NCBI GenBank assembly: GCA_965203355.1
Contig: OZ241889.1
Span: forward strand, 256,001-320,000
Length of the DNA stretch: 64,000 nt
Direction: 5' to 3'
Source of the DNA: Candidatus Latescibacterota bacterium
Lineage (GTDB): Bacteria > Latescibacterota > UBA2968 > UBA8231
This document shows positions 2,876 through 20,411 of this stretch, one piece after another. Position 1 is the stretch's first letter. Each line of letters opens with the position of its first letter. Both the position numbers and the translations under genes were made by a program. The notes under the pieces are model-generated. The model had not been told where the DNA came from. It did no database searches and saw nothing but the letters and a program-made list of their open reading frames with translations.

Positions 2876-3874
2876 ATGGTTCAACCCCGCATCCTGTCCA
2901 GCGTCGAGATCGAGTTTCAAGGCCAAAGCCAAGCCCGTGCGCTTATTGAGCACGCCGGCTTCGCCATCGAGATCCGGCATCCCGAACCCGGCTGGCCCGA
3001 CGAAGAAACGCGCGCCAAGCTAAACGGCTTCGACGCCCTGCTGGCTGGCGGCGAAAACCTCAACGCCGCCACCATGGACCAAGCGGCCAACCTCAAGATC
3101 ATCGCCCGCAACGGCGTCGGTTTCGACAAAGTTGACCTCGATTACTGCACACAGCGCGGCATCGTCGTCACCAATACCCCGGGTGCCATGGCCGACGCCG
3201 TGGCCGACCTGACCTTCGCCCTGCTCCTTGGGATGGTGCGCTCGCTCAGGTTAGGCGACCAGCGGGTCAAGACGGCAGACATCTACGACGTTCCGGTCGG
3301 CCAAGACCTCTGCGCCATGACCTTGGGGCTGGTCGGCTGTGGCCGCATCGGTGCCGAAGTCGTGCGCCGCGCCCGCGGCTTCAAGATGCGAGTCCTCGTC
3401 CACGATCCCCATATCGACGACGCGCAAATCCGCGCCCTCGGGGCCGATCCTGCCGACCGCGCTGCCCTCTTGTCCCAAGCCGACGCCGTTACCTTGCACC
3501 TGCCGCTGACCGAGAACAACCGCCACCTCGTCAATGCCGAGTTTATCGGCCTTATGAAAGAGGGCGCCTACCTGATCAACACCGCCCGCGGCGGTTTGGT
3601 TGACGAAGCCGCCCTGATCGCCGCGCTCGACAGCGGCCACCTAGCCGGCGCCGGCCTCGACTGCCAAGCCACCGAGCCGCCGCAAGGCCAATCCCTCGAA
3701 CTGGTCCGCCGCGACCAGGTGCTGGCCTTACCCCACACCGGCTCCAGGACCCTAAGTGCCCGCCAGCGCATGGCCTTCGTCGCCGCGCAGAGCATCGTCG
3801 CACTATTGCAGGGCAGAGTCCCCGATCACGTGGTCAACAAAGAAGTGCTGGATCGGTTGGATTTGGCGGGGTAG
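2876..3874 (+). CDS. D-isomer-specific 2-hydroxyacid dehydrogenase (SerA-like)
   Basis: ARNGVGFDKVD, TNTPG, GxGxxG (GCGRIG), INTARGGLVDE and LPHTG motifs. RBS AGAGGA. Confidence 0.92.
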   Translation: MVQPRILSSVEIEFQGQSQARALIEHAGFAIEIRHPEPGWPDEETRAKLNGFDALLAGGENLNAATMDQAANLKIIARNGVGFDKVDLDYCTQRGIVVTNTPGAMADAVADLTFALLLGMVRSLRLGDQRVKTADIYDVPVGQDLCAMTLGLVGCGRIGAEVVRRARGFKMRVLVHDPHIDDAQIRALGADPADRAALLSQADAVTLHLPLTENNRHLVNAEFIGLMKEGAYLINTARGGLVDEAALIAALDSGHLAGAGLDCQATEPPQGQSLELVRRDQVLALPHTGSRTLSARQRMAFVAAQSIVALLQGRVPDHVVNKEVLDRLDLAG

Positions 3875-3896
3875 CGGTGAGGACGCGGCGCGAGGA

Positions 3897-4160
3897 TTAC
3901 CACCCGCTGGCCGCGTAAATCGTCAGCAGCAATTCTGCATCGTCGAGCAATCGGTATTCCGGTTTCTTGCCGGACAGTCTTTCGCTGTTGCCCAAGATAA
4001 TAGGCACTCCCTCGCCGCGTTTGTCCATCAGAGTCCGGCGCTCTGTCGTCAGCCAAGGCGCGTCGGGCACCGCACACTTGGCCAGCAAGCTGCAAACCGC
4101 CTCATTCCGCACGGACTGGCGAGTGCTCTGGCGATAAATCATCCAGCCCGGCCATTGATA
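3897..4160 (-). pseudogene. C-terminal remnant of an AlbA_2/HATPase_c_4-type ATP-binding regulator
   Basis: RQSVRNEAVCSLLAKC...MDKRGEGVPIILGNSERLSGKKPEYRLLDDAELLLTIYAA resembles, from recall, the C-terminus of that family. The upstream part of the ORF is not protein-like. It lies at the island edge. Confidence 0.55.
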
Positions 4161-4430
4161 CGGGTTGTTCGTCAAAGCGAATAAGGCGCGTCTGACTGCG
4201 CTGCTGGAACAGGCGGGCGAGAGGTTCTTTCGGGTTGTCGAACATGATTTATGCCGCTTTATAGACATCATAGACATCGATATTCAACGAGTCATAGTAT
4301 ATACCTAAAAAATAAACTTAAACAATAATATATGTATTAGTAGCGAGACATAGTATGCAGCACTTGACGTAGGATCCATTTTAATCTAAATATTACCCGC
4401 TATGTTATCACAATTGGTAGAAAGTCGTCA

Positions 4431-6071
4431 ATGGGAATATTCTATGGTAGTGGTCCTGGACAGGATCTAGCTGAAGTCGTGGATCGTCTGAGCACGGACG
4501 AGTTGCACACTATATTGGGAAAAGACACCGTTTCGCTTATCGAAGCACTCGCTGGTGTCGAGGACAAAAGCGCAATGCTTCGCCGAATCACGACTGAAAT
4601 ACTACGCGATCGGGCAAACGATCTAATGGTGCGCAGCGATATCCGAGAGACTTGTTTCAACGCTATATCACCCGAAAAGCGAATCGAGCTAGCAAATCGA
4701 TTAGGTATTACGGATGTCGATACGCTTCGCACCATGAACCCGACCCAAGATGCCAAGACTTGGCAAGCCTTTCTAGGATTCTTCGGGATTGATGCACACG
4801 ACGCAGCTCCTTTTGCGATTGCCCCCCAACAAGAAACTATTCGGCCCGAATTTGGGTTGTTTCCTCATCAGCGGCTTATGGCCGACCATGTCTACGATGC
4901 CATTCAGGGAGGGCACGGGCGGGTTGTTCTCCACATGCCAACCGGTGCAGGTAAGACTAGAACAGCGATGCATATCGTTAGCCGATTTATGACTGCCTCG
5001 GAGCCGTCCGTTGTCGTTTGGTTAGCCACTAGCGCGGAGTTGCTTGATCAGGCGGCCGACGCCTTCCAAAGCACTTGGTCTCGGCTCGGCAACCGCGAGA
5101 TCGACATCCTGCGTTTCTGGGGAGATTATACCCCAAACCTGTCTAGAACTTCGGACGGCCTAATAATTGCCGGACTACAAAAAATGTATGCACTCAAGAC
5201 GAGGGACCATATCGATATTTTGCGGCTCGCGAAGTCGGTTAAGCTCGTCATTGTCGATGAGGCCCATCAAGCAATTGCGCCAAGCTATCGGGAAGTAATC
5301 GATATCTTGGCCGAAACTGGTAAAAATAATGCTCTCTTGGGTTTGACAGCGACACCGGGGCGTACATACTCAGATATTGAGGCCGACGAGCGGCTGTCTG
5401 ATTTTTTCGACGGACGAAAGGTCATGCTCAAAGTGGAGGGTCGGGACGACCCGATTTCTTTTCTTATAGAACAGGGGTATTTAGCGCATCCAACGTTCCG
5501 ACTCCTTGAGATCCAATCACCCTCTGAACTTAAGTCTCGTCTGAACAAAGTAAATGAAGGAGACGATTACGATTCGACATTACTAGAATTGCTCGCAGGA
5601 CAAGTAGGCCGAAATATCACCATTGTCGATGAAGTACGCCGCTTGATAGCAAAGGGGCACAAGAGGATAATACTGTTCGGTGCTTCCGTACGACACGCTG
5701 AGCTGTTAGCTATGGCTCTATTAGCGGTAGGAATTGATGGACGTGTTGTGACTGCAAACACAGGATCGACCGCCCGTACGCGAATCATCAGAGCATTTCG
5801 AGAATCTTCCGCAAAGCCTATCGTCCTGTGTAACTTCGGCGTCCTGACGACCGGATTTGACGCGCCGAACACAAGCGCAGCCGTGATTGCCCGACCAACT
5901 AAGTCTCTCGTGTTGTTCAGTCAGATGGTAGGCCGTGCGACACGGGGCCCCAAGGCCGGCGGCAACGAAACCTGCGAAATCTCCACTGTAATTGACACCG
6001 ACTTACCTGGATTCGGCGATATAGCCGAGGCTTTTACCAATTGGGAGGATGTGTGGCATGCCCCACGCTGA
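4431..6071 (+). CDS. SF2 (DEAH/ResIII-like) helicase
   Basis: Q-motif LFPHQ, Walker A HMPTGAGKT, IVDEAHQ, motif III LTATPGR, motif V LTTGFDAP, motif VI QMVGRATR. Confidence 0.93.
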   Translation: MGIFYGSGPGQDLAEVVDRLSTDELHTILGKDTVSLIEALAGVEDKSAMLRRITTEILRDRANDLMVRSDIRETCFNAISPEKRIELANRLGITDVDTLRTMNPTQDAKTWQAFLGFFGIDAHDAAPFAIAPQQETIRPEFGLFPHQRLMADHVYDAIQGGHGRVVLHMPTGAGKTRTAMHIVSRFMTASEPSVVVWLATSAELLDQAADAFQSTWSRLGNREIDILRFWGDYTPNLSRTSDGLIIAGLQKMYALKTRDHIDILRLAKSVKLVIVDEAHQAIAPSYREVIDILAETGKNNALLGLTATPGRTYSDIEADERLSDFFDGRKVMLKVEGRDDPISFLIEQGYLAHPTFRLLEIQSPSELKSRLNKVNEGDDYDSTLLELLAGQVGRNITIVDEVRRLIAKGHKRIILFGASVRHAELLAMALLAVGIDGRVVTANTGSTARTRIIRAFRESSAKPIVLCNFGVLTTGFDAPNTSAAVIARPTKSLVLFSQMVGRATRGPKAGGNETCEISTVIDTDLPGFGDIAEAFTNWEDVWHAPR

Positions 6072-7917
6072 AGAAGCAGTTGACCAAGGAGATCTATTCG
6101 ACGCCCAGATCATTCCCGTGCGTCTAGCTATAACTGCGATGCGCGACTCTGGATATAAGAATACGGCCTATGCACTCGCGGAGTTGATCGACAATGCAGT
6201 GCAAGCCAATGCCTCAATGATTGAGGTATTCTGTATCGAAAAACGTGAGCCTCTTCAGACCCGTACACGCTCAAGGCTTTGGGAAATCGCAGTGCTCGAC
6301 AATGGATCGGGTATGGATCTCCAAGCGTTGTGGATGGCACTCCAGTTTGGTAACGGTACCCGCCTTAGTGATCGAACCGGTATTGGTCGCTTCGGCATGG
6401 GCTTACCGAATGCGTCAATCTCGCAAGCTAGGAGGGTGGACGTTTGGAGTTGGCAGAATGGGACGGCCAACGCGATAAAATCTTTCATTGACCTAGCGGA
6501 GATCGATAGGGGAGACATGAGCGATGTACCAAAGCCTGTGCATGACCCCGTGCCCGAGCGATGGAGGATGCTTTCCGATCACATCGGACAATGTGGGACC
6601 TTGGTGGTGTGGTCAAATCTAGACTTTGAAAGGCTAACTTGGAAGAGTAGTAAAAGTGCTCTAAGGCACACCGAAAGAATCGTAGGCCGTGTATATAGAC
6701 GCTTCATATCAGATAAAAAAGTAACAATTAGGCTATATGCGATGGAGGATGGTGCCGATGATAAGCCGATTTTCGATCGGGAAACCTCAGTAAATGATCC
6801 ACTTTACCTTGTTCCTGTGGAAGAATTACCCTCCCCATTCAGTAAGCAACCGATGTTCACGCATGTTTTTGATGATCCTTATGATATAGAGTATGATGGG
6901 AAGGTGCATACGGTAAAGACTCGCTATTCAGTAGCGTCTGAGGATACAATAACCGAAGCTGGAGTTGGTGATCGTGGACAAACGAAATATGGGAAACATG
7001 CCCAAGGAAACATGGGCGTTTCGGTCCTCCGTGCAGGGCGTGAGATCATGATCGACCATGGGTGGTGTATCGGTTATGATCCGAGAGAACGTTGGTGGGG
7101 TGCAGAAGTGGAATTCCCTCCCCAACTCGACGAGGTATTTGGAGTGACAAACAATAAACAAGCAGCGACCCACTTTGCCGAGTTGGCTACGATGGAATGG
7201 CAAGAACTCGCGGAAGAAGGTGAACAATTCATTGATGTCGTGAAACGCCTGAAAGAGGATAGAGACCCCCGTGGATGGTTACTCGGCCTGAGCGATAGCA
7301 TTAAGCGGAATCTCAAGAGATTGCGCGGGATAGTCAACGGACAAGGCGCGGGAAGACGGTCAAGCGGACGGACACGTCATGCCGTCGATGATGCCACGAA
7401 GACTGTCAATGAGAGATGGAAGGAGCGATCCAAGGAACAGCCTTTAGAAGAGGACAAAAAATCGCCAACGGAAAACGACCTTAACTATATTCGTACCGAT
7501 CTTACTAAAAATAAGAAGTACAGTGACTCGGATGCAGAAGAACTCGTATCTCTGATCAGAGATACGGAGCTGAAGGTGGTATTTCTCGAAGCAGACTTTC
7601 CCGATCCTTTTAATCTCTTTAATGTAGAGATGAAAGGAAATATTACAGAAATAACATTCAATAGGAAGCATCCTGCTTTTGACTATATCTTTGGTACGAT
7701 CAAGACCGCCGACGAGGACGTACGTAATCTTTCTCAAGAAGAAGTAATAGAACGCTTAACAAGAGCTGTCAACGCCGGAAAGATCATCTTCGCAGCGTGG
7801 GGACGTTATGAAAGAGAAGCAGGGGTTGATCGCGTTAAAGCTCTTCAGAAGGTTCGACTTGAATGGGGACAAATCGCGGCACAGTTTCTAGATCAGGACG
7901 ACAATCTCTCGCTATAG
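6058..7917 (+). CDS. GHKL (MORC/MutL-like, HATPase_c_3) ATPase
   Basis: RDSGY...LAELIDNA, VLDNGSGM, GIGRFGMGL, GTLV, and later FGVTNNKQ. ATG at 6058 follows GGAGG and overlaps the end of the helicase gene. Confidence 0.9.
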   Translation: MPHAEEAVDQGDLFDAQIIPVRLAITAMRDSGYKNTAYALAELIDNAVQANASMIEVFCIEKREPLQTRTRSRLWEIAVLDNGSGMDLQALWMALQFGNGTRLSDRTGIGRFGMGLPNASISQARRVDVWSWQNGTANAIKSFIDLAEIDRGDMSDVPKPVHDPVPERWRMLSDHIGQCGTLVVWSNLDFERLTWKSSKSALRHTERIVGRVYRRFISDKKVTIRLYAMEDGADDKPIFDRETSVNDPLYLVPVEELPSPFSKQPMFTHVFDDPYDIEYDGKVHTVKTRYSVASEDTITEAGVGDRGQTKYGKHAQGNMGVSVLRAGREIMIDHGWCIGYDPRERWWGAEVEFPPQLDEVFGVTNNKQAATHFAELATMEWQELAEEGEQFIDVVKRLKEDRDPRGWLLGLSDSIKRNLKRLRGIVNGQGAGRRSSGRTRHAVDDATKTVNERWKERSKEQPLEEDKKSPTENDLNYIRTDLTKNKKYSDSDAEELVSLIRDTELKVVFLEADFPDPFNLFNVEMKGNITEITFNRKHPAFDYIFGTIKTADEDVRNLSQEEVIERLTRAVNAGKIIFAAWGRYEREAGVDRVKALQKVRLEWGQIAAQFLDQDDNLSL

Positions 7918-7935
7918 GATTTGGAGAAGTAGGTT

Positions 7936-8844
7936 ATGATCGCGGACGGCGAGCGCCTGAAGGAGCTCTTAGAGAAAGCTGAGCACCGAGTAATTTTGTG
8001 CGCTCCATTCATTAAAGCGGCAGTGCTACGGACTATTCTATTAGTCGTGCCCGAGACAGTACCAGTAAAGATTGTCACGAGGTGGCGAGCAACCGAAATC
8101 GCTGTAGGAATAAGCGACCTTGAGGTGCTACAGATTGCGACCGACAGGCCGCACACTGAGCTTTGGCTATTGGATGATCTCCATGCCAAACTCTACATTG
8201 CAGATGATAAGTGCCTTGTGGGATCTGCCAATTTGACGGCGAGTGCTTTAGGCTGGTCAAAAAACAGCAATATAGAACTTCTGATTTCAGCAAAGTCAAC
8301 TGATTCTGATATCGCCTTTCTTTTAGAGCAACTTGAAGCAGCGGAGCTTGCAACTGTCGCGACTCGTGCAAAAATTGAGGCAATGGTAGCTAATCTCAAA
8401 GAGACAAGACTCGAAGAAGGGGAAGACATGACGGATGAAAGTTCAGTCCGTCAATTGGCTTGGCTGCCCCGTTGTGCAGCCCCAGACAAGCTCTATGAGA
8501 TTTATCGAAACTCGGAGACAACAGTTGTAGTGGAGGGCACTAAGGAGGATGGCCTTGCAGATCTAAGGGATCTGCAGATTCGACCTGGGCTCCCGGCAAT
8601 GACTTTCAAAGACAACGTACGGAACACCCTTCTCTTGATGCCTGCATTCGCTCGAATCATTGAGGATGTGCCCCAAAGTCTTACGGATGCCGAAGGAACT
8701 GCACGGGTCGAGGAAGCTCGTCCTGACTTGGATGAGCAAGATGCGAGAGAACAATGGCGTATTGTACGGGACTGGATTGAGAGCTTCTTTGGAGACATGT
8801 TTGAGGTAGCTCCAGCATCGTTTGTCACTCGTCTGAGATCATGA
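7936..8844 (+). CDS. PLD-superfamily (single HKD) nuclease-domain protein with uncharacterised C-terminal domain
   Basis: LCAPFI, LHAKLYIADD (HxKxxxxD), VGSANLT and NxE motifs. Confidence 0.88.
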   Translation: MIADGERLKELLEKAEHRVILCAPFIKAAVLRTILLVVPETVPVKIVTRWRATEIAVGISDLEVLQIATDRPHTELWLLDDLHAKLYIADDKCLVGSANLTASALGWSKNSNIELLISAKSTDSDIAFLLEQLEAAELATVATRAKIEAMVANLKETRLEEGEDMTDESSVRQLAWLPRCAAPDKLYEIYRNSETTVVVEGTKEDGLADLRDLQIRPGLPAMTFKDNVRNTLLLMPAFARIIEDVPQSLTDAEGTARVEEARPDLDEQDAREQWRIVRDWIESFFGDMFEVAPASFVTRLRS

Positions 8845-8972
8845 TATTAATATCAAAAAAAAGTATCTAGTTGTCTTCGAGTACCGAACTGTCCTACCCA
8901 TCATCTAAATCCCCTCGTAGTCCAATTGTGTTTATAGCTTATAGCCTCCGTCAAATTCAAAGGCCCCTTCTC

Positions 8973-9776
8973 TCAAAGATGACAAATAGCGCACCCGTCC
9001 AAGTCCTCCCCAGCGGGCACCTCATAGCGCTTTTCTAACTTTTCGACGTCCTCTAGGGAGCGTCCATTTACCCAAGTATACTTTCTTCCACTCTCCTCTT
9101 TCTCGTAGTCCTTGGCCTTCTCAAACAATTCGGGATGGTTCTCCTTGAGTCCCTGCCACTCTCCAATCTGTTGATAGAAGCAAAAATAACACCCCGATCT
9201 TGAACGCCAGCGATAGTAAGGGGGGAGTCCGAGACCTGATTGATCGAGTAGTCCCTTCACTTCTTCTAAGCCGATACCATCCTCTTTGAACGGATATATA
9301 GGAATGATATTATTCGCCTCAGAGAGCATAACTGGTTTGCGCTGCTGATAACCTGTGCGCTGCTCGTCTGCCCGAATGCCTATATAGGTATAGGCGCGAT
9401 CATTTCCTATTTCTCGCTCAAAGGGTTTAATCTTCAACACACGCGTACACCAACGGGCCTGTGGGCTAGGGAGAAAGCCGCCGTAGTACTCCTTGAGATA
9501 AACATCGAACGGCTTGCGATCTTCCTTTTCTCGGATACCCAACATCCCAAGAACGTTTAAGCGCTTGACCTCAACACTAAAAATCGCCTCAAATCGTTCA
9601 ATGTATTCGTAGGTCTCCTTCAGTTCCGCTCCCGTATCGCAGAATATGAACTCAAGGTCTAGCTGCGGATAGTTTTCCAAGAGGTAAATGCCGAGCGCGG
9701 TGGAATCTTTACCGCCCGAAAATGAAACCACATGGCGAGCATCGGTATCCTGAAGCGCATCCTTCATCAGAGTCAT
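8973..9776 (-). CDS. sspD: PAPS-reductase-family PT modification protein, SspD-like
   Basis: PP-loop SFSGGKDS, CDTGAE, RWCT, GIRADE, RSGCYFC and C-terminal CAICHL, in operon context with DUF4007 and a cysteine desulfurase. Confidence 0.85.
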   Translation of the reverse strand: MTLMKDALQDTDARHVVSFSGGKDSTALGIYLLENYPQLDLEFIFCDTGAELKETYEYIERFEAIFSVEVKRLNVLGMLGIREKEDRKPFDVYLKEYYGGFLPSPQARWCTRVLKIKPFEREIGNDRAYTYIGIRADEQRTGYQQRKPVMLSEANNIIPIYPFKEDGIGLEEVKGLLDQSGLGLPPYYRWRSRSGCYFCFYQQIGEWQGLKENHPELFEKAKDYEKEESGRKYTWVNGRSLEDVEKLEKRYEVPAGEDLDGCAICHL

Positions 9777-9782
9777 GGCCTG

Positions 9783-12700
9783 CTAACCTCCTGCCAATTC
9801 GGAAATCCCGTCCCGCTCGTTGGTCCGGGATTGAAGTTGGTCAATCAACTCGGCGCGAGCATCCGGCGCAAGCATCCGGTCGAGCTTGCTGAACAGATAC
9901 TTAATGCGGCGTTCGAGAAGGGGAGCCGCCGAGGGGCTTATTATTTCTGCCTCAAGGAGTCCCTGTTCTGCTCTCGTGACGACCTCTCGAAGGCGATCTG
10001 CAAATTCTCGCAGGCTCGCATCATCCCAACGATCAAGCCCTTTCCCAAGCAAGATCATACTCAACGCACGTGCAAAAGAAGCCTCCGTATAACGGCCATT
10101 TGTTGCTTCAGCCGCACGGGTAAGAATGGCACGAGAGGTGGCGTCAAGATCAGACGAGGAAATCGCTTCATCACTGAAACATGCCGACCACTCTTTTGCC
10201 CGGTGTAGCGCATTGCCGGGAGAATTAGGAGCAAGAGCTAAGAAGTCGTGGATTATGGCGATGGCCTTTGCAGTATAACCATCAACGATGCCTTCTAATT
10301 CTTGGCGAAGAGCGGCCACGCCCTCTAAAGTGTCGTCATCCGGCAAAAGAGTACCCGTCAGTTTGGGAAACTTCTCCAAGGCCAAGACAGCGGGATCGTT
10401 TGTTGTGCGAAGAACGGCTTGGAAGGAACGAGCCTCGGGGCCGACTTCGCGAGTGGTTAGTGCTGGAGTAGGTAACTGGGCCTTCCAGCTTTCAAGAGCA
10501 TCATAGAATTGGCGGATCAAGTCGCCATGATGAGGCGGCATCCCACCGAACTGTTCAATTAAGTCTCGTAAGTACCTAGTTTGGAACGCATCAACCTCCA
10601 GAACATCAACTGAGAATTCGTCTGGAGTCGAGCAGAAATCTTCAATCTCACTAGCGAGGATGTCGGCGAGATATGAACCATGACGTCGAATGACAACAGC
10701 CCGACCAAAGGCTTGTAGCCCCGCCGCAACTAGGATGGGCAGTGTGGCTTTACGGGTTCCATGCGGTGGTCTTTCAAGTGATTCAAGAAAAGCTGCCGGT
10801 GATTTCTCGGAGCTAGGCGTAGTAAAAAAATCTTTAAGCTGCTGCCAAAGCTCCGCTAGGCCACGCTCTCCGATCTCGGCTGGTGCCGCCCAACCCCAGC
10901 CCGTGTCTTTCGTCCGGTACAGTCCTGTGCGCTCTAGCACCGTTCGGTACAAAGCAACATCCGGTGTCGTAGCTTCTATATCAAAACCAAGATGTGGTTT
11001 CCCAGATCGTTCCAGAATTCCTAGGATCAGCTTTTTGCGTGCATTCACCATTGGTCGGCTGATTTTTTCCCTAACGATGAGTTCGTTGTTTATGCGGGGA
11101 GTACTTGGGAACCGTTCATCGGCGAGTTCGGACAACCTCTCGCGCAACTCGCCTTCGTTGCGGACCGATAACTCTTGTCCTTTAGAAAACCAAGTGAGGC
11201 CGTTCGAGCTAGGGCTGACAATCCGCGACACAATGTGCGCTAAGTGTTCTTGGGCAGCATCAATCATGTACTTAATCTCAGGCTCTATGAAGGGATCAGT
11301 CGCAATAAGCTCGTAATTTTGTCCCAAGCTCCTTAATGCCATAATCTCTAATGCAATATCCAGCGTTTGCGTCGGATGCTCTGGGACTACAAGAATAACC
11401 CCTGAGTCAAGCGAAGATAGCTCCCGCACGAAAGAGCGTAGCTCAAGGATTTCTTCGCTCGTCTCGACAAGGCAATAAACAACGCGCCCGTCTTCACCAG
11501 CCCCCAACTGCAACAGTGGATGCCCTACACCTTCTCGCAGCAGATCGTTTGCAGATGCGTATGCACCGGCGAAAAAACGTCGAATGCGGTTCTTCACGTT
11601 ATGGGCAACGGGTCGCCAATAAGGTGGCGGATGCTCTTTTGACAGAATCTCAACAATGTTGAGTTCCAAGCTAATGCGGAGCTTTTCTTCCTCCAAATGG
11701 GCGCGTAGATCAACATCGGTTCCATGCCAAACCGAGATGTCGTCGTTGCGTTGTCGGTAGAGCAGTAGGTTTCGGTCGATCAGGCCATCAATGGTTTGCT
11801 CAATAACAGCATGGGAGGAATCATTGAACTCAGTGACAGCAAACCTGAGAACATCTTTGCGGACGCGCACACGTTCACCAGAAATGCCAAGCCCAAGAAG
11901 GGCCGCCGCCGCTATGATTTCGCTTTCTTCCTTAGTAGCTGCCTTTGAGAGAGCACTTTCGCTTTCAAGCCATCTACGATGTGTCCCGCCGATTCCCGTA
12001 TCGGCTTCCATTGCCTCTGAAAAATATCGGTACAGATCATGCAGAGTTTGCGACTGACCTAGATCGGCCTCTCGCAAGAAGGAAAAGACCGTTCGCTCAT
12101 TTTGTGCGAGCCGAGCCGCTACCCGAGGTAGCATGTGAAGAGCGGCCGGATGCAAAGGGTAAGCACTTCTTAGAGTTTGTGTGAGCTTCCCCTTATTTCC
12201 AAACGACTCAAACAAGCCCAATTCCAGCGCTCTTTCCGCTATCTTCTCACTAGCTTTAAGGGTCAGAGGCCGACGAATATCGCGCGATTGTTCGATCACT
12301 GAGGCGATCAATTCGTACATCTCCCGACTGTCTTCGACATAGCGGACCAATCCGAAGCGGCCCTCAATTTTCCGCCAACTGTTGCGTGCGGCTTGGCTCA
12401 GATTGCCAACATAGTGAAAGAAGGTCTGGTGTAATAGGATAGTGAATGTCGCGGTAGGTTCATCCTGTCGAGAAGCCCATTCAGCGATCTGTTGGACTTC
12501 GGAAAGAACTTCCGCATGTCCAGAAGAAGCAAGGGTTTCAAGATGCCGACCAAACTCATCCCATATTATTGAAATACGGTCGCGGCCTTGTGTATGTGCC
12601 CTTTGAGAGATTGCGTCTAAAATGTGAAGAATCTCGCCGTTGTGCCGACGTGGCTTCCGAAAATATCTGAGTTGCTGTTTCGCCTGCTCAATAATAGCAC

Positions 12701-13064
12701 CAGCAAGATCAGGTTGGTACCCTTCAAGGACGATAGTTAGCCCTTGGGTGCGACTTTTTATGCGAGTTTTAACAATAGCGCTAAGTTGTTTATCAACAGC
12801 GGCGAGACGTTCGCTAATTACGGAGAGCACCTTTCGCGCTGAGGGTGAGTTCTCGACCGCCATGGTCGCTATTCCGGTAGCCAGCGATTTCCCAGAACCA
12901 TACGCAGCGACTACCATCGAAGCGGCAGCAGGCTTTCCATCAAGTACCGCTTGGATGACTTGGGTACTCTTCTTAGTGGGATAGAAATGTGAAAATCGCT
13001 CGGGATGGTCCCTGTCGAGGAGCAGACTGATCGACTTAAAAAAACGGTCTGTTGTACCTATCAT
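9783..13064 (-). CDS. sspC: Large P-loop ATPase, SspC-like (BrxC-related)
   Basis: Walker A AAYGSGKS, Walker B IIWDEFG, WRKIEGRF, YPLHP and QNERTVFSFL. The ATG at 13064 overlaps the sspB stop (ATGA). Confidence 0.82.
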   Translation of the reverse strand: MIGTTDRFFKSISLLLDRDHPERFSHFYPTKKSTQVIQAVLDGKPAAASMVVAAYGSGKSLATGIATMAVENSPSARKVLSVISERLAAVDKQLSAIVKTRIKSRTQGLTIVLEGYQPDLAGAIIEQAKQQLRYFRKPRRHNGEILHILDAISQRAHTQGRDRISIIWDEFGRHLETLASSGHAEVLSEVQQIAEWASRQDEPTATFTILLHQTFFHYVGNLSQAARNSWRKIEGRFGLVRYVEDSREMYELIASVIEQSRDIRRPLTLKASEKIAERALELGLFESFGNKGKLTQTLRSAYPLHPAALHMLPRVAARLAQNERTVFSFLREADLGQSQTLHDLYRYFSEAMEADTGIGGTHRRWLESESALSKAATKEESEIIAAAALLGLGISGERVRVRKDVLRFAVTEFNDSSHAVIEQTIDGLIDRNLLLYRQRNDDISVWHGTDVDLRAHLEEEKLRISLELNIVEILSKEHPPPYWRPVAHNVKNRIRRFFAGAYASANDLLREGVGHPLLQLGAGEDGRVVYCLVETSEEILELRSFVRELSSLDSGVILVVPEHPTQTLDIALEIMALRSLGQNYELIATDPFIEPEIKYMIDAAQEHLAHIVSRIVSPSSNGLTWFSKGQELSVRNEGELRERLSELADERFPSTPRINNELIVREKISRPMVNARKKLILGILERSGKPHLGFDIEATTPDVALYRTVLERTGLYRTKDTGWGWAAPAEIGERGLAELWQQLKDFFTTPSSEKSPAAFLESLERPPHGTRKATLPILVAAGLQAFGRAVVIRRHGSYLADILASEIEDFCSTPDEFSVDVLEVDAFQTRYLRDLIEQFGGMPPHHGDLIRQFYDALESWKAQLPTPALTTREVGPEARSFQAVLRTTNDPAVLALEKFPKLTGTLLPDDDTLEGVAALRQELEGIVDGYTAKAIAIIHDFLALAPNSPGNALHRAKEWSACFSDEAISSSDLDATSRAILTRAAEATNGRYTEASFARALSMILLGKGLDRWDDASLREFADRLREVVTRAEQGLLEAEIISPSAAPLLERRIKYLFSKLDRMLAPDARAELIDQLQSRTNERDGISELAGG

Positions 13065-13951
13065 CGTCCTGCTCCAAGGTAGTACTTCTTCAGCCAACCA
13101 GACAGCGACAACCCTCTTACTCTGACGAAGCGTTCACCTCCAAGAGTATGCGTGTGAATCAGCTCTGTCCCGAGTGCTTCTTCAGCCTCACCTAGGAGAT
13201 TAATCAACGCATCCGCATCTAAGGCCAATGTTCTTCCTGGACATTTAGGCTTGGCTATAGCTTCCGATAAATTGAGATCAAAAGAGTCGCCGCTATCTTC
13301 GTCTTCTGGCAATGCTTTAGCGAAGGCGTATCCAATGATCTCGAACGGAATAGCTTTTTTGCGGCGATTTAGCTGATAAGTGTCTGACTCACGCAGATAC
13401 GTGATCAGCCCTAGTAACCGGAACGGACACTCATGGCCGTCTTCGGGATCCTCCTGAGTGGGAGGGATCGGTGTCGCGTAACTTGACAATAGACACGCTA
13501 TATCCCGTGAGATCGTCTTTGGACTAGGGAGGCGTTGTCCCTGGACAACAAGTTGCCGCCGGAGGTCTTCCGAACAGCGGATACGGTCGAAGCGCCCATG
13601 CGAGAACTGATTAAAGAACCAATACCATGCAACGGCATCGATCCCACATGTTACCAAATTGACGTGTAACACCCACCAAGTGCCGAGGCGCAAGAAATAG
13701 GGGTCGTATTGCTGAATGGTTCTGCCGATAGGGGTGATGGCCGATGAACCACTGCGACCGTTTTTCGTTGTTTCTACAAGACCTGTTACCTGTAGCCAAT
13801 GCCGAATCGACTTGGCCATATTGCGACCAACGCCTAGGTAATCGGATACGAATGGGTCCTTAAAAGCGTCCGCGTCTTCCTTGAGAAGCTCGAGGCCCTT
13901 AACGAGCCAATCTTCTCGCACCGCGAAAGTTTCGTGTCCGCCAAATCTCAC
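13061..13951 (-). CDS. sspB: DUF4007 family protein, SspB-like nickase
   Basis: Family signature FGGHETFAVREDWLVKG...LGVGRNMAKSIRHWL...DPYF...WWVLH...ECPFRLLGL. Confidence 0.88.
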   Translation of the reverse strand: MRFGGHETFAVREDWLVKGLELLKEDADAFKDPFVSDYLGVGRNMAKSIRHWLQVTGLVETTKNGRSGSSAITPIGRTIQQYDPYFLRLGTWWVLHVNLVTCGIDAVAWYWFFNQFSHGRFDRIRCSEDLRRQLVVQGQRLPSPKTISRDIACLLSSYATPIPPTQEDPEDGHECPFRLLGLITYLRESDTYQLNRRKKAIPFEIIGYAFAKALPEDEDSGDSFDLNLSEAIAKPKCPGRTLALDADALINLLGEAEEALGTELIHTHTLGGERFVRVRGLSLSGWLKKYYLGAGR

Positions 13952-13957
13952 AGTTGC

Positions 13958-15103
13958 TTACCCAGTCAGCCGTTCCAGTGCAAGTAAGCGTTGATAGACT
14001 AAACAGACCGCTTCTGCGGCCTGCTTGGCTTCTTCAAGCGAGTTGAGCACCGAAAAAGAGAACCGAACGCTTGCGAAGGCTTGATCTTCTGTTAGTCCCA
14101 TGGCAAGCAATACATGAGAAGGTTCGGGGCGCTGGCTCACGCAGGCAGAGGTCTGCGAGCAAATGATACCCACCTGATCAAGTTGGGCCATAAGAGCCAT
14201 GCCTTCTACGGACGAAAAATGAATGTTAGAGGTATTGGGAACGCGATTACTGCGATCTCCATTAATATGAAGCCCTAGCGCAGACCCTGCAAGATGGTCC
14301 TCAAATACTCCTCTTAGGGTCTCAAGATGTGTTATCGCCTCGTTTAGCTGGCGAGAGCGGACATCGGCAGCTATACCGAAACCAATGATCCCTGGCAGAT
14401 TTTCGGTGCCTGGGCGCATCCCACTTTCCTGATCTCCGCCGAAGAGCAAGGGAGAGAGTAGGTTTTCTTGCTTGCTGCAAATCGCGCCAATTCCCTTCGG
14501 ACCGTGAATCTTGTGTGCGGTGAACGTCATAAAATCAATGGGAAGATCGGGCAACGAGATTGGAACGCGACCAATTGCTTGCGCCGCATCGACATGAAAC
14601 GGCACTAGACGCCGGCGGCAAATTTCACCTAGTGCCTCAATCGGTTGTACGGTGCCGGTTTCGCTATTTGCCCACTGAACGGACACAAGGGTCGCTGGCT
14701 CCTCTAGAGCAACTTCAAGGCTATGTGGACTGACCCGACCAAGCTGATCTACTGGTAGAATAGTGACCTCTACGTCCGCATCTTGCAGAGCTTGGGCCGT
14801 CTTCAAGACAGACGAGTGTTCAATCTCCGTCGTGACGAGCCGGGTTCCCTGCTTATGTGAACAGATGCTTTGAAGAACGAGGTTATTGGCCTCCGTTCCC
14901 CCCGAAGTGAACAGAATCTGTTCCGACTCTGAACCAACGAGACTAGCGACGCGATGGCGGGCCTCGGACAGGGCCTCGCGAGCATCCGCGCCAAGTTGAT
15001 GCGGACTCGATGGATTCCCGTACCTAGTCGTCATCAACTCGACGACCGCATCGACCACTTCCGGCAAGGAGCGCGTCGTGGCGTTGTTGTCCAAGTAAAT
15101 CAC
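13958..15103 (-). CDS. sspA: Cysteine desulfurase (IscS/DndA/SspA)
   Basis: IYLDNNATT, GNPSS, FTSGGTEANN, HVDAAQ, PLP lysine TAHKIHGPKG and catalytic Cys in SQTSAC. First gene of the ssp operon. Confidence 0.9.
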   Translation of the reverse strand: MIYLDNNATTRSLPEVVDAVVELMTTRYGNPSSPHQLGADAREALSEARHRVASLVGSESEQILFTSGGTEANNLVLQSICSHKQGTRLVTTEIEHSSVLKTAQALQDADVEVTILPVDQLGRVSPHSLEVALEEPATLVSVQWANSETGTVQPIEALGEICRRRLVPFHVDAAQAIGRVPISLPDLPIDFMTFTAHKIHGPKGIGAICSKQENLLSPLLFGGDQESGMRPGTENLPGIIGFGIAADVRSRQLNEAITHLETLRGVFEDHLAGSALGLHINGDRSNRVPNTSNIHFSSVEGMALMAQLDQVGIICSQTSACVSQRPEPSHVLLAMGLTEDQAFASVRFSFSVLNSLEEAKQAAEAVCLVYQRLLALERLTG

Positions 15104-15882
15104 TTCAGCTTTCCTCTAGCCCTCACCCCCGGCGGCATAAAAAACTCGTACTGCTCCGGCGTGCCGTAGCCTTCCATCTCCGTCAGCCGCACCCCGGTGC
15201 TGTTGAGCGCCGCCTCGACGATCCGCTTGTTAAAGGTGCTGACGTTTTCCTCGGCCAGATAGTCGCCCACCGGCATCCACAGACACTCGGCAATCTCGTC
15301 CTCTTGGATGCTAATCTCCGTGCTCAGAGGGCGCAGGCGGCAGACGAAGTAAATATCCGACTTGCCATAGCGGTAGCCGTGCCAGTGGCGAAAGCAGACC
15401 AGCGCGTCGAACTCGGTCTCGACTCCGGTCTCTTCGGAGACTTCGCGCACCACGGCTTCGGCCAAGTGCTCGCCCGCGTGGAGCGCACCCCCGGGCAACT
15501 TGTAGCGCGGCGGGCCGGGCGCACGTCGATGGTACTTTTCGCTGACCACTAGCAGTTCCCGCGCCTCGTTGAGCACCACGCCGCCCGCGCCGATATAGTG
15601 CGAAGCGTGGGCCGGCACATAAGCACCTTCTTCGAGTTGCAAGGTCATCATTAGATAGCCATCGCCGCTGTGGTGGAATGTAAAACCGACTTCCGCCGCT
15701 ACCGGGATCAACGCCGCCTTGGCAATCGGCACTTCCAGCCAGACGACCCGGTAGCCTTCGCCTGCCCAAGCCGCCAGCGAAACGCGCAGCCGCTCGGCAA
15801 ACGCCGCCGGGTTTGGGTCGAGAGCCTCTGGTTTGGGAATGATGCCGCCGAATGGATTGGTTGTTGCCGCAATAGGTTCCAT
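15100..15882 (-). CDS. NUDIX hydrolase (NUDT6-like, with N-terminal pre-NUDIX domain)
   Basis: Nudix box KLPGG...GEHLAEAVVREVSEETGV, plus GFTFHH and KSDIYFVCRL. Start at MEPIAAT. Confidence 0.9.
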   Translation of the reverse strand: MEPIAATTNPFGGIIPKPEALDPNPAAFAERLRVSLAAWAGEGYRVVWLEVPIAKAALIPVAAEVGFTFHHSGDGYLMMTLQLEEGAYVPAHASHYIGAGGVVLNEARELLVVSEKYHRRAPGPPRYKLPGGALHAGEHLAEAVVREVSEETGVETEFDALVCFRHWHGYRYGKSDIYFVCRLRPLSTEISIQEDEIAECLWMPVGDYLAEENVSTFNKRIVEAALNSTGVRLTEMEGYGTPEQYEFFMPPGVRARGKLK

Positions 15883-16030
15883 AGCCCGCCTTCCGCAATG
15901 GCCGCTAGTGATAGCAAACCCCACTTGGCGTGTCAACCCGCCCAGCTTGGCCCGCTGCCAAACCGTACCCTCGGTGGAGAGCACCGCCTTAGCACCTTAT
16001 ATTGAGATATTCCACATAGAAAGGATCAAC

Positions 16031-17302
16031 ATGTCCGCAAAACTACCCCTCGCCATCGTCGGCTGCGGCGGCATGGGCCACCGCCATCTCTACGGCCTCG
16101 CCGAGTTGCAAAGTGCCGGCCTGTCGCCCTTTGAACTGGTGGGGGCCTGCGACCCCAATCTCGGCAATGCCCACTCGCTCGCCGACCAAGCCGAGGAGCG
16201 GCTGGGGACGCGACCCAAACCCGTCAAAGACCTCGCCGAATTGGCCGCGGTCGCCCCGGTCCAAGCCGTCGACATCACCACCCTACCAGCCCATCACCAC
16301 ACCGTGGCCATCGAGGCCATGGAGCGCGGCTGGCACGCGATGTGCGAAAAACCCATGGGACTTACGGCCCGCGCCTGCAAACAGATGATCGCCAAGACCC
16401 AAGAGACCGGATGCGTCCTCTCGGTAGCTGAAAACTACCGCCGCGACCCAGTAAACCGCCTCGCCAAGGCCCTGCTCAACGCGGGCGTCATTGGGCGTCC
16501 GCGCCTGATGCAGCAAATTGCCATAGGCGGCGGCGACCGCATGCTCATTTCCGTGTGGCGGCACCAGAAAAATGCCAGCGGGGTCCTGCTCGACGTGGGC
16601 GTTCACTTTGCCGACATCATGGAGTACTTCCTCGGGGCAGCCGACACAGCCTACGCCCAGACGCGCCTGCATGAGCCGATCCGCAAAAACCCCCTCGCGG
16701 GCCGCGCCAGCACCGGCAGCGGTTCGCCGGGCGGCGTCTATGAACGTTGGCAAAAAGACATGCCAGCCGAGTTTGAGGCCACCGCAGACGACGCGGCCTA
16801 CGCCACCATCCTCTTCAAAAGCGGCGCGGTCGCCCAGTACATCGAAGACCACGCCGCCCACGGCCAAAACCAGCAACAACGCTCCATCCACGGCAGCCTC
16901 GGCTCGCTGGACCTGCCCGGCGATCGCTCGGGCAACCGCCTCACACTCCATCTTGACGGCGCAGACCCCATCAGCGACCAAGCACTCCTCGATCTCGTGC
17001 CCGACCACCGCCTCGACGAAGTCACGGCCGCGCTCTTCGGCGGCGACCGGCTCTTCGAGTACCACCTTCCCTTTCCCGAGACCGACCGCAAGCTAATCGC
17101 CATCGAATACCACGAACTGGGCACCTGCATCCAGCAGGGGCGACAGCCCGAAGTCGACGCCCAGCAAGGCGCGCGCTCCGTGGGCCTGTCCTACAGCCTG
17201 ATGGAGTCGCAAGTCGCCGGCCGCGCGCTCTCGGTCGATGCGGTCTGCGACGACCAGATCAACGCTTACCAAGCCGAGATCAACGAGCATCTGGGGCTAT
17301 AG
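16031..17302 (+). CDS. Gfo/Idh/MocA family oxidoreductase
   Basis: IVGCGGMG, CEKPMG, AENYRR and LLDVGVH motifs. RBS AAGGA before the ATG at 16031. Confidence 0.92.
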   Translation: MSAKLPLAIVGCGGMGHRHLYGLAELQSAGLSPFELVGACDPNLGNAHSLADQAEERLGTRPKPVKDLAELAAVAPVQAVDITTLPAHHHTVAIEAMERGWHAMCEKPMGLTARACKQMIAKTQETGCVLSVAENYRRDPVNRLAKALLNAGVIGRPRLMQQIAIGGGDRMLISVWRHQKNASGVLLDVGVHFADIMEYFLGAADTAYAQTRLHEPIRKNPLAGRASTGSGSPGGVYERWQKDMPAEFEATADDAAYATILFKSGAVAQYIEDHAAHGQNQQQRSIHGSLGSLDLPGDRSGNRLTLHLDGADPISDQALLDLVPDHRLDEVTAALFGGDRLFEYHLPFPETDRKLIAIEYHELGTCIQQGRQPEVDAQQGARSVGLSYSLMESQVAGRALSVDAVCDDQINAYQAEINEHLGL

Positions 17303-18775: not shown

Positions 18776-20198
18776 CGTAGCGCTCCAGACGCGCCAGCGC
18801 CTCGCCGCTATCCAGCGCCTCCCGCGCTTCGGCCAACCCCTCTTCCGCACTCGCACTTAGACCCAGATAGTAGTCGGTCAGGCCAGCGTTGAGTACTATG
18901 CGATCGCAAACAGGCCCGGGTTCGCCCTTGAGGGCCGCCACGCCCATAGCGGCAAAAGCCTGCGCACTCACCTCCGCCGGACGCGGACTTTGCTCGTAGC
19001 GAAAGCCGTAAGCCGCCGGATCCACATCGCAGCTAACCATCTCCCGCTGGCTCCCAACCCGGCGGAATCCCTGCACGTAATTGATCGCCTTGCGCCGAGC
19101 GTCCGAGGGCTTGCCCAATCGCAACCCATAGTGGCTGCTCCCCTCCTCGCCCTTGATCACCAACCCCGCGTCCAAGCCGCGTTCCTGCATCAGCCCCAAC
19201 AGTTTGTCCTCGTAGCCGGTGTGGTAAAAGCCCGCGACCATGCCGTTCCAAGCCGCGCCGGAAAACAACTGCTGTGCCTTCTCGGTGGTGGCCCAAGGCG
19301 GACGCTTGGCAATGTGGGTACGCAAATGGCGCAACGCGTACGCACGGGGAGCGTACTCGCGCTGACTCACATACGCGAACCCAATGGACGGGTCTTCAAT
19401 GCAGCGGGCCGCTGTCGCCAGCGGCAGATCGACCCGCGCCCCCAAGGCCGCTAGCACCCCCTCCTCGGTGACTCCGCGCTTGGGCGGCATTTCGGCGACG
19501 CTGTGCAGCACAGTCGCCCGGCCCAAGGCCGCGCGCACGGCCGCAACGAAAAGCGTCGGGCGAAAATAGCGGGCGGCGCCGTCAAAAGGCTGGCCAAAAT
19601 GCAGCAGCGAATCGACTTGGACCCGTGGCGATTCTTCCGGGCGATGCACCGCGTCGAGATGAGCGCGAACTTCTTCTTCATTTTCGATGTTCATCCGCTG
19701 GCCGATCAAGAACGCGGCCATCAGCGAGGGGCGCACTTGGCCTGCTAGCATGGCTTCGAGCGCACCGCGCACTTCTTCGTAGCGCAAGTGCCCACCCTGC
19801 AAAACCGGGCGCAGGGCCGCAACCACCTGCGCTTCACCCGCGTCGCAAGCCGCGAAATCAGGTGCTATCCCCAATAGGAAGCGCAAATCCTCGGGCATCT
19901 GCGCCAGCGCATCTCCGTAGCGGTCAAACGCCTCGATCTCGGCTGCGCTCCAACCGGTCTGTGCGCCGAAGGTGCGGCGGATGGACATGGCCGCGAAAAA
20001 CGAGCCCATCTGGGCCGGGGAAACCTGCTCTGCGCCAGGTAAGGCCCCCTTGAGGGAGGCAAAAATCAGCTCCAGAATCCGCTTAGGGTCTGGGTCGCCT
20101 TCTTTTTTGCCCAGCGGGCGACTCTGATGCGGCCCAGTACAGACGCGCACCTGCGCGTCCAACACTTCCTCGTTGGGGCCGGGATAGGGGTCGGGCAT
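18750..20198 (-). CDS. Anthranilate phosphoribosyltransferase-like (glycosyltransferase family 3, YbiB-like) protein
   Basis: AAFLIGQRM, FDGAARYF, LRTHIAKRPPWATTEK, IKGEEG and AREALDSGEA. Lacks the canonical TrpD GTGGD motif. Confidence 0.75.
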   Translation of the reverse strand: MPDPYPGPNEEVLDAQVRVCTGPHQSRPLGKKEGDPDPKRILELIFASLKGALPGAEQVSPAQMGSFFAAMSIRRTFGAQTGWSAAEIEAFDRYGDALAQMPEDLRFLLGIAPDFAACDAGEAQVVAALRPVLQGGHLRYEEVRGALEAMLAGQVRPSLMAAFLIGQRMNIENEEEVRAHLDAVHRPEESPRVQVDSLLHFGQPFDGAARYFRPTLFVAAVRAALGRATVLHSVAEMPPKRGVTEEGVLAALGARVDLPLATAARCIEDPSIGFAYVSQREYAPRAYALRHLRTHIAKRPPWATTEKAQQLFSGAAWNGMVAGFYHTGYEDKLLGLMQERGLDAGLVIKGEEGSSHYGLRLGKPSDARRKAINYVQGFRRVGSQREMVSCDVDPAAYGFRYEQSPRPAEVSAQAFAAMGVAALKGEPGPVCDRIVLNAGLTDYYLGLSASAEEGLAEAREALDSGEALARLERYVNQSQAAR

Positions 20199-20257
20199 GG
20201 GTTTTTAGGCTCCTGTCCGAGTCGAGCAATTCAACGCAGGCATTCGGGAATCGGCAA

Positions 20258-20316: not shown

Positions 20317-20411
20317 ATATTTTTTGAGAGAAAGCCCGCTATACAACTTTTGGCGATTAGCATTCCGATCTGCAAAGACAACATTTTTCTTTCATAAAAA
20401 GAGAGACGCCC

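Follow-up and report, generated by a model that had tools for sequence, protein, structure and literature searches.

The window, the whole 64,000-nt stretch of DNA analyzed here, comes from contig OZ241889.1 of a Candidatus Latescibacterota bacterium, and it contains at about 4,400–15,100 a low-GC island (GC 0.46–0.53 over 4001–14500 versus 0.62–0.65 in the flanks) that is filled by two convergent gene arrays. The minus-strand array encodes the four Ssp proteins SspA, SspB, SspC, and SspD of DNA phosphorothioate (PT) modification, and the plus-strand array encodes an SF2 helicase, a MORC-class GHKL ATPase, and a phospholipase D (PLD)-type nuclease, to which we refer as the trio (Table 1). An initial annotation made from the sequence had described the island as two convergent operons of seven genes, and the open reading frames (ORFs) and GC content bear out this layout with all seven ORFs in place. 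Both arrays are packed like operons: The helicase and GHKL genes overlap by 23 nt (14 nt if GHKL begins at Met4) and the GHKL and PLD genes are 18 nt apart, while on the other strand gaps of 6 nt separate sspD from sspC and sspB from sspA, and sspC and sspB overlap by 37 nt. In view of the ORF lengths and the E-values of the family matches, none of these seven ORFs is a product of chance.

Table 1. Features of the two convergent arrays, with positions in the window.
Feature	Position	Strand	Length or remark
SF2 helicase	4431–6071	+	546 aa
MORC-class GHKL ATPase	6049–7917	+	622 aa
Single-HKD PLD nuclease	7936–8844	+	302 aa
Convergent spacer between both operons	8845–8972	none	Position of an insertion sequence (IS) in the closest relative genome
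SspD, PAPS-reductase-like ATP pyrophosphatase	8973–9776	-	267 aa
SspC, large ATPase related to BrxC/PglY	9783–13097	-	1104 aa
SspB (DUF4007)	13061–13951	-	296 aa
SspA, NifS/IscS-type cysteine desulfurase	13958–15103	-	381 aa

The minus-strand genes are contiguous and their products match the respective PADLOC models over nearly full length, and the initial identification of these genes as sspA to sspD is confirmed by E-values that all lie at or below 2.9e-89. SspA was recognized by the PADLOC models for SspA (2.9e-127) and DndA (8.6e-126) as well as by Pfam Aminotran_5 (3.4e-73), SspB by its PADLOC model (4.2e-112) and Pfam DUF4007 (1.3e-59), and SspD by its PADLOC model (2.9e-89) and Pfam PAPS_reduct (3e-13). 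SspC matched its PADLOC model over the full model length (1.9e-145) and also BrxC (2e-56), with no match in Pfam or NCBIfam. In the characterized systems, SspABCD modification places PT on a single strand, at 5'-CpsCA-3'. IscS together with SspBCD is sufficient for PT modification in E. coli (PMC8092258), and the best reading of the four genes from their families is that they would form a first module, the predicted writer of PT marks on the host chromosome.

The first gene of the trio encodes a helicase with Pfam matches to ResIII (1.3e-25), DEAD, and Helicase_C, in which a motor resembling RadD and the R subunits of type I–III restriction enzymes (residues ~140–510) follows a family-specific N-terminal region (1–135); a protein-atlas search with residues 1–140 gave no lead, with scores all below 0.8. 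Motifs I, II, III, and VI are present as GAGKT (172), DEAH (276), TATP (306), and QMVGRATR (498). The nearest relatives are RadD (NCBIfam 5e-31; PDB 6jde, 4e-18), the R subunits of type I enzymes, PbeA (a partial PADLOC match of 3.1e-21 that covers the helicase part of the model), and TIGR04095 dnd_restrict_1 (3.8e-14), where both NCBIfam matches are far below their cut-offs. Another PADLOC match was obtained to mREase_IV (5.6e-18), and another PDB match to SauUSI (7clg, 1.5e-5).

The second gene encodes a protein with a match to Pfam HATPase_c_3 (1.5e-19) that is composed of a GHKL domain and an S5 transducer domain (together residues ~19–432) followed by a family-specific C-terminal domain (433–622). 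Its true start is probably Met4 (position 6058), since homologues are ~618 aa long. The GHKL motifs ELIDN (45), DNGSG (84), and GRFGMG (113) are accompanied by a MORC-type S5 motif, GVSVLRAGR (323), whose tenth position is a glutamate where the GhXhhpXXRhl consensus wants a hydrophobic residue. This S5-domain motif was used by Iyer et al. to define MORCs (PMC2292703), and the protein displays both parts of the prokaryotic MORC definition, i.e., GHKL motifs and S5 motif. The initial MORC/GHKL label is further supported by the best PDB sequence match, human MORC2 (1.8e-6), and by the predicted model (predicted local distance difference test, pLDDT, 83.9), of which residues 19–432 were aligned by VIA-align to SMCHD1 (Z 20.0), MORC3 (Z 19.0), MutL (Z 17.9), and MORC2 (Z 17.2). 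No meaningful structural match was found for the C-terminal domain (433–622) in a search with the full model, where the GHKL and S5 part filled the match list, and a complex prediction of the helicase with the MORC C-domain (394–622) scored 0.00, which is no verdict either way. Among 8,000 candidates scored, the GHKL family comprised 4,381 proteins at E<=1e-3, and the top 120 of them were 63–100% identical to the window protein.

The third gene encodes a PLD protein (Pfam PLDc_2 7.8e-08, PLDc 4.2e-05) with an N-terminal single-HKD domain (residues 1–150), a disordered linker (158–173), and a helical/winged-helix C-terminal module (172–302). A single HxK(x)4D...GSxN unit begins at residue 83, so that one HKD motif per chain and a predicted PLD fold place the protein among the Nuc/BfiI-type PLD nucleases, a type that acts as a dimer. 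In the predicted model (pLDDT 89.1), the N-terminal domain was matched by VIA-align to SauUSI (Z 15.8, root-mean-square deviation 2.1, 140 residues aligned), Nuc (13.2), NucT (12.7), and BfiI (12.6). The C-terminal module was matched to BrxA-like 3bhw (Z 7.9), N.BspD6I (7.5), BrxA (6.9), SspB (5.7), and FokI (5.6), with the matches to N.BspD6I and FokI falling on the DNA-recognition domains of these enzymes; the scores are moderate but the list of modeled likenesses is coherent, and the DNA-binding modules of BrxA, FokI/BpuJI, and SspB have already been grouped together (PMC12839542, PMC10853773). Invariance was judged in alignments of 52–53 homologues, across which the motif residues of all 3 proteins are invariant, including H83, K85, G96, S97, and N99 of the PLD protein in 53 sequences. 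The earlier statement that the catalytic motifs are intact is therefore correct for helicase, GHKL ATPase, and nuclease alike.

The trio does not correspond to any of the named systems that were compared. No match to SspE, DUF262, or DUF1524 was obtained in any of the seven proteins or in the window's other 38 ORFs of at least 90 aa, and an identity with SspE was rejected on these grounds. SspFGH, known here by description and not by sequence, was rejected on domain content: According to its description, SspF has a Walker A motif and SspH ends in an FtsK-like part, with no recognizable domains otherwise (PMC8092258), and Pfam gave no FtsK_SpoIIIE match in the trio proteins. That the trio looks like neither of these effectors, as had been noted by eye, thus agrees with its domains (ResIII/Helicase_C, HATPase_c_3, and PLDc_2 in place of DUF262/DUF1524), with SspFGH judged by description. 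The profile check against named systems that had been proposed along with it gave no match of the trio above weak domain level in PADLOC-DB v2.0.0. Mza was rejected because only the N-terminal GHKL part matches MzaB (PADLOC 8.4e-15 over residues 26–193; NCBIfam 66.7 bits versus a cut-off of 850) and because the Mza partners (MzaA, MzaC, MzaD, and MzaE) are lacking; DISARM because DrmC covers the HKD region only, at 30.1 bits versus a cut-off of 133, with no match to the DrmA helicase or to DrmB (DUF1998); and Zorya/Azaca, Mokosh, and Hachiman because of weak domain-level matches only (partial ones to ZacB and MkoB, far below the cut-offs). PbeA/TIGR04095 was rejected as well, since only the helicase part of PbeA is covered, TIGR04095 scores 52.5 bits versus a cut-off of 600, and the HKD domain resides on a separate protein of 302 aa. 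The PADLOC models for DndF, DndG, and DndH had no match at E<=0.001 among the seven proteins.

A scan of one genome per species yielded 289 tblastn-confirmed relatives of the GHKL protein, of which the best 80 loci were kept for counts, and the presence of trio and Ssp genes at these loci was scored by tblastn with the seven window proteins. Helicase, GHKL, and PLD genes occur together at 71/80 loci, and at least one of SspB, SspC, and SspD was found within the fetched flanks (10 kb) at 69/80; SspC and SspD are both present at 67/80 loci and all of SspB, SspC, and SspD at 59/80. Where each flank extended over 8 kb or more, SspC and SspD were detected at 55 of 59 loci. The SspB family (DUF4007) is encoded somewhere in 76 of the 80 genomes, given that 7 of the genomes behind the 11 loci without an ssp match have DUF4007 elsewhere (5/5 plus 2/6). 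For comparison, DUF4007 occurs in 8/400 genomes of an even sample from the class of one carrier and in 0/14 control genomes. The neighborhood test that the initial annotation had called for, i.e., co-occurrence with sspBCD across phyla, thus turned out strongly in favor of its proposal.

In the commonest layout (40 loci), sspBCD, helicase, GHKL, and PLD genes follow one another on one strand, mostly with a gap of 160–350 bp, and 25 loci show convergent operons as in the window. By record titles, the loci span at least 10 phyla, with hosts among Latescibacterota, Gamma-, Alpha-, and Betaproteobacteria, Acidobacteriota, Chloroflexota, Bdellovibrionota, Rhodothermales, Planctomycetota, Binatia, Thermodesulfobacteriota, and Cyanobacteriota. 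When all 1,210 ORFs of the 80 loci were clustered without supervision, only the trio and SspA–D were widely recurrent, and the next families were found at no more than 12 loci. In the class sample, which is small for this purpose, a GHKL relative (E<=1e-30) was seen in 2/401 genomes, both of them SspB-positive, and none was seen in the SspB-negative genomes of the 400; the non-centre genome with such a relative carries its GHKL and SspB genes on one contig. The trio itself occurs in only 1/7 non-centre SspB-positive genomes of this sample. Beyond chromosomes, 13 plasmid records contain a GHKL relative, and all 7 that were inspected have Ssp-type genes adjoining, with GHKL identity to the window down to 32% (Treponema saccharophilum pTS1) and hosts that include Cyanobacteriota, Bacteroidota, and Spirochaetota, among them a Hymenobacter plasmid. 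Cultured carriers also include Pannonibacter phragmitetus BB (plasmid p.BB_2) and Roseobacter litoralis (pROLI83). Plasmid A of Trichormus variabilis ATCC 29413 additionally carries a DndB gene and a [quoted passage not shown]. The linkage of the trio to sspBCD is therefore near-obligate and phylum-spanning.

The initial annotation had further asked whether trio and sspE are mutually exclusive, and this is not strictly the case: Strong matches to the SspE model PDLC02783 were obtained in 3/55 trio genomes, in two of them within the same cluster, either directly after the PLD gene (L010) or after sspD (L008). The trio is usually the only candidate effector, though it can be stacked with SspE, and stacking with SspE has also been reported for SspFGH (PMC8092258).

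The two modules evolve as separate units. Spearman correlations of pairwise protein distances over 56 loci and the window amount to 0.60–0.75 within the trio and 0.80–0.94 within SspBCD versus -0.00 to 0.28 between the modules, and the window trio is 68–76% identical to the trios of three other loci (L002–L004) whose SspC is only ~23% identical to that of the window. Trio and SspBCD are thus each cohesive in evolution and re-assort against each other, which suggests that the DNA mark, rather than co-adapted contacts between their proteins, is what connects them. The low correlation is also consistent with experiments in which SspBCD from different sources were interchangeable for SspFGH (PMC8092258, Table 1).

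Divergent variants of the trio were found at L091 (10242–14797; genome G003), on Aminobacter sp. MSH1 pUSP2 (L102), and on Agrobacterium tumefaciens pAtCFBP7129b (L099). Their helicases are ~24% and their GHKL proteins 37–39% identical to those of the window, they still adjoin Ssp genes, and their third gene encodes a non-PLD protein of 359–360 aa that in L091 matches a PADLOC "Effector/Endonuclease" model. Such an exchangeable nuclease slot favors an effector module, since swapping of this kind is typical of them. On the Agrobacterium plasmid, three hypothetical proteins and a 1,836-aa protein with an FtsK/SpoIIIE domain are encoded between the variant trio and a PAPS-reductase gene (L099 10384–20612), and this cluster may represent a cassette of the SspFGH kind that accompanies the trio. 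At 12 of the 80 loci (e.g., L004 6557–8331), a DndB-like protein (PF14072) and a ~173-aa protein that matches no known family are encoded between sspD and the helicase gene, and the same insertion is found on the Trichormus variabilis plasmid (L098 7333–10154), which suggests that a regulatory accessory has been taken over from Dnd systems. A cyanobacterial variant was seen in Fischerella sp. CENA71 (L079 7766–13801): In addition to GHKL, the locus comprises genes for an HNH protein, for a helicase shortened to 360 aa, and for a cysteine desulfurase as well as two small ORFs, with no PLD gene among them, and no DUF4007 was found anywhere in the genome.

The closest relative of the window, a complete Latescibacterota chromosome (G001), carries the trio in the same chromosomal site, with a syntenic left flank and 86.5% nucleotide identity over window positions 4361–8845. 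By blastn, this match (at L001) ends at the PLD stop codon (window 8845), where a 1,231-bp IS begins. The sspABCD genes of this chromosome (L088) are located 1.87 Mb from the trio, with 90.8% nucleotide identity over window positions 8843–15260 and 90–97% protein identity. One IS copy with an rve-family transposase is present at each breakpoint (L001 12788–14018 and L088 14427–15657), and the two are 99.9% identical and inverted. Such a configuration is the hallmark of an inversion mediated by the IS, with the island severed precisely in the spacer between both operons. All seven genes nonetheless remain intact there with dN/dS ratios of 0.05–0.23, i.e., under purifying selection. The same genome encodes a second, divergent sspABCD (L087 8902–17731) that is followed by the gene for a 708-aa PbeC/DndD-like ABC ATPase (PADLOC 4.5e-52), which is another unusual Ssp partner.

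Taken together, the trio is probably a PT-coupled restriction or defense module. On the strength of sequence comparison, the island is best read as a two-module PT-based restriction-modification (R-M) system, in which the trio, by analogy, would constitute a third, as yet unnamed class of Ssp restriction module equivalent to SspE, SspFGH, DndFGH, or PbeA. By sequence and modeled structure, it looks like a PbeA/SauUSI-type enzyme whose HKD nuclease and SF2 translocase have come to be encoded by separate genes, to either side of the one for a MORC ATPase. We infer from the analogy to PbeA, SauUSI, DndFGH, and MORC/MutL that the three proteins would act as an ATP-dependent restriction complex, and likewise infer that this complex restricts DNA and reads PT. 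MORC and MutL ATPases are ATP-driven dimeric DNA clamps. In the mechanism that we propose, the PLD subunit would bind DNA via its C-terminal winged-helix module resembling those of BrxA, SspB, and FokI, the MORC dimer would close on DNA upon ATP binding, and the SF2 motor would translocate along it. Host PT marks might then act in one of two ways, namely by stopping the complex or taking it apart, as has been proposed for DndFGH, or by licensing it, as in the case of SspE. Where PT is absent from the DNA, a composite active site could be assembled from two single-HKD subunits and nick or cut. More tentatively, and with less than even likelihood, the MORC ATPase may itself be the reader of the PT mark, or a clamp coupled to the reader, that gates a split helicase–HKD nuclease.

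Several observations weigh against this interpretation. The unlinked trio of G001, which stays 1.87 Mb from the ssp genes, indicates that operon linkage is not required, and the coexistence with SspE in 3/55 genomes means that the trio is not simply an SspE replacement. Four of the 80 genomes showed no SspB family, namely 3 fragmented metagenome-assembled genomes and the Fischerella variant lacking the PLD gene. The likeness of the PLD C-terminal module to BrxA, SspB, and FokI, at Z 5.6–7.9, remains below the caution line of 8, and no recognized sulfur-binding domain was seen in the trio.

Operons of MORC, SF2 helicase, and nuclease genes have been predicted to be self-contained R-M-like systems (PMC2292703), and the trio could in this sense be an autonomous MORC-type ATP-dependent restriction system that does not read PT and resides beside Ssp genes through the clustering of defense islands, acting either as a type IV-like system against modified phage DNA or as a modification-independent DNA sensor. 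This alternative, which we consider unlikely, draws on SauUSI, a modification-dependent type IV enzyme, being the closest structural relative of the PLD domain, on the mREase_IV match of the helicase, on the nearly uncorrelated phylogenies of trio and Ssp proteins, and on the persistence of the unlinked trio in G001. However, ordinary island neighbors vary, whereas the trio keeps one specific partner in 69/80 loci and 76/80 genomes versus a background of ~2%, and no other neighbor recurs at more than 12 loci. The co-directional arrangement with Ssp genes at 40 loci, with gaps of 160–350 bp, and the absence of the GHKL family from the SspB-negative genomes of the 400-genome sample likewise argue against a merely shared address.

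Given its strict coupling to sspBCD, often in the same transcriptional direction, the trio might also serve modification itself, as an accessory for DNA remodeling, complex loading, target selection, or the turnover and repair of PT sites, where backbone lesions linked to PT would be the substrate of the PLD domain. The resemblance of the PLD C-terminal module to DNA-binding modules of SspB and BrxA, the DndB-like regulator between sspD and the helicase gene at 12 loci and on the Trichormus variabilis plasmid A, and the roles of MutL and MORC relatives in DNA repair and chromatin remodeling would suit such a function. Yet nothing beyond IscS-SspBCD is needed to modify DNA with PT in E. coli (PMC8092258), and most sspBCD loci do without the trio (1/7 non-centre SspB-positive genomes in the class sample). 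The PLD domain is moreover of the Nuc/BfiI/SauUSI nuclease type, its slot is swapped for other nucleases in the variants, and an integrated enzyme complex is hard to reconcile with how little trio and SspBCD co-evolve, so that we regard an accessory role as very unlikely. Least probable of all is a suicide effector that causes abortive infection by attacking host DNA when a phage disturbs PT homeostasis or Ssp proteins: Self-targeting has been proposed for HKD and SF2 effectors beside Dnd genes (PMC10853773), and strict self/non-self restriction is hard to explain if only a minority of PT sites is modified as in known systems (PMC12914056), but nothing specific points to suicide and the architecture is that of ATP-dependent restriction enzymes.

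The interpretation of the trio as a PT-coupled restriction module bears on a gap in what is known of Ssp systems. Two Ssp effectors, SspE and SspFGH, have been characterized so far, and 2,211 of 2,678 sspBCD loci were reported to lack both sspE and sspFGH, for which the authors proposed further restriction partners (PMC8092258). Part of this gap could be filled by the trio, a well-defined candidate that is conserved, spread widely over the phyla, and also present on plasmids of cultured bacteria. Current annotation probably scores trio loci as modification-only Ssp systems because the product names in the plasmid records are generic ("DEAD/DEAH box helicase", "ATP-binding protein", and "phospholipase D family protein") and because no model of PADLOC-DB v2.0.0 matches above weak domain level. 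As a PT-coupled module, the trio would bring together research on PT epigenetics, on HKD/helicase restriction enzymes that depend on ATP, and on the ancestry of MORC ATPases in prokaryotes, and would offer a tractable system for studying how a protein machine reads backbone sulfur. Should the more tentative idea of a MORC reader hold true as well, prokaryotic MORCs would gain a role in epigenetic surveillance directly parallel to that of eukaryotic MORCs, and the MORC-reader trio would be a widespread class explaining part of the ~84% orphan sspBCD loci.

Targeted searches of the literature, which did not cover supplementary tables, found no work linking Ssp to a helicase-GHKL-PLD cassette. 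The words MORC and GHKL are absent from the main text of a later reappraisal of Dnd systems (PMC10853773), and MORC is absent from that of a reappraisal of BREX (PMC12839542), where the search used MORC and MutL; the authors of both are related to those of the 2008 MORC survey (PMC2292703). Term searches in PMC12914056 (helicase, HATPase, and PLD) and PMC8569181 (helicase, ATPase, and nuclease) did not find the trio either.

Around the island, housekeeping genes make up both flanks, with DAHP synthase, an Ldh_2 dehydrogenase, and a 2-hydroxyacid dehydrogenase on the left and a Nudix hydrolase and a GFO/IDH oxidoreductase on the right, and no integrase or transposase was found among window ORFs of at least 90 aa. 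Over positions 3800–16200, 11 terminator-like sites were called versus 12.1 expected, none of them in the convergent spacer 8845–8972, and 20 promoter-like sites versus 10.5 expected, an excess that is likely an effect of composition. On the minus strand, the island is bordered on its left by an ORF of 126 aa (3897–4277) that matches no family, and it may not be a gene since 3878–4360 have no blastn counterpart in the otherwise syntenic L001. At the right edge, the Nudix hydrolase gene (15100–15984, minus strand) has the GC content of the host, and its stop codon overlaps the sspA start by 4 nt; this overlap is probably incidental, as ~1.9 kb are inserted between both genes in G001. Farther to the right, a second, smaller low-GC patch (20000–21700, GC 0.52–0.54) just upstream of an ABC transporter operon contains two ORFs without Pfam match (20521–21201 and 21286–21693). 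He_PIG Ig-like repeats together with an FlgD_ig domain at the C-terminus characterize the products of four successive minus-strand genes at 27725–41250, of which three are giants of 1,048, 1,297, and 1,891 aa and the fourth a protein of 213 aa that also matches Por_Secre_tail, and these look like a family of secreted or surface proteins.

Compared to the characterized Ssp systems, the island shares the modification module of SspABCD-SspE and SspABCD-SspFGH (all four matches of the order of 1e-89 or lower) and the position of the restriction cassette, which abuts sspBCD. In addition, the cassettes of SspFGH and SspE are likewise spread independently of SspBCD phylogeny, and SspFGH can co-occur with SspE (PMC8092258). 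The cassettes themselves are different in domain content. SspE combines an N-terminal DUF262 (GmrSD_N) domain with a C-terminal DUF1524 nuclease domain in a single protein of ~700–800 aa, whereas the trio consists of SF2 helicase, MORC GHKL ATPase, and HKD nuclease, and SspFGH, by description, has nothing recognizable beyond the Walker A motif and the FtsK-like tail (PMC8092258).

PbeA/TIGR04095, an HKD endoDNase fused to an SF2 helicase and found beside Dnd PT genes, resembles the trio in its helicase (aligned to model positions 246–616 of 672 at 3.1e-21; TIGR04095 3.8e-14), in having an HKD nuclease, and in the association with PT-modification genes. In contrast to PbeA, the trio has HKD nuclease and helicase as separate proteins with a MORC ATPase encoded in between, its HKD protein has a winged-helix C-terminal domain of its own, PbeB, PbeC, and PbeD are missing, and the partner is Ssp instead of Dnd. 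SauUSI provides the best structural match of the PLD domain, a weak sequence similarity to the helicase, and the overall logic of a nuclease, a motor, and a DNA-reading domain, but it is a single polypeptide without MORC and cuts DNA modified with 5-methylcytosine or 5-hydroxymethylcytosine (5mC/5hmC). Since the trio adjoins a modification system, it should spare modified DNA, unlike SauUSI. With DndFGH, the PT-dependent translocase/nickase, the trio would share the predicted role of ATP-driven DNA scanning that is coupled to nicking and governed by PT, though the proteins differ and the modification is Dnd there and Ssp here.

Precedents of the trio are the operons of MORC, SF2 helicase, and nuclease genes that Iyer, Abhiman & Aravind predicted in 2008 to be R-M systems, which have in common with it the GHKL and S5 motif, a neighboring Rad25/ResIII-like helicase, and the option of an HKD nuclease (PMC2292703). 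The legends of figures 1 and 2 of that survey list Nitrococcus mobilis, Marinobacter sp., Erythrobacter sp., and Anabaena variabilis, and these taxa carry the trio in our data (at L034, L015, L022/L032, and plasmid hit H8). The trio type has therefore almost certainly been seen before, in that survey of MORC operons. The modification partner described there is a DNA methylase (PMC2292703), and words for PAPS, Dnd, or cysteine desulfurase were absent in a term search of that paper. The window's island encodes a helicase and an HKD nuclease and no DNA methylase, and SspABCD stands in the place of the latter. What is probably new here is the link to PT, with SspABCD as a putative modification partner for MORC-type restriction systems.

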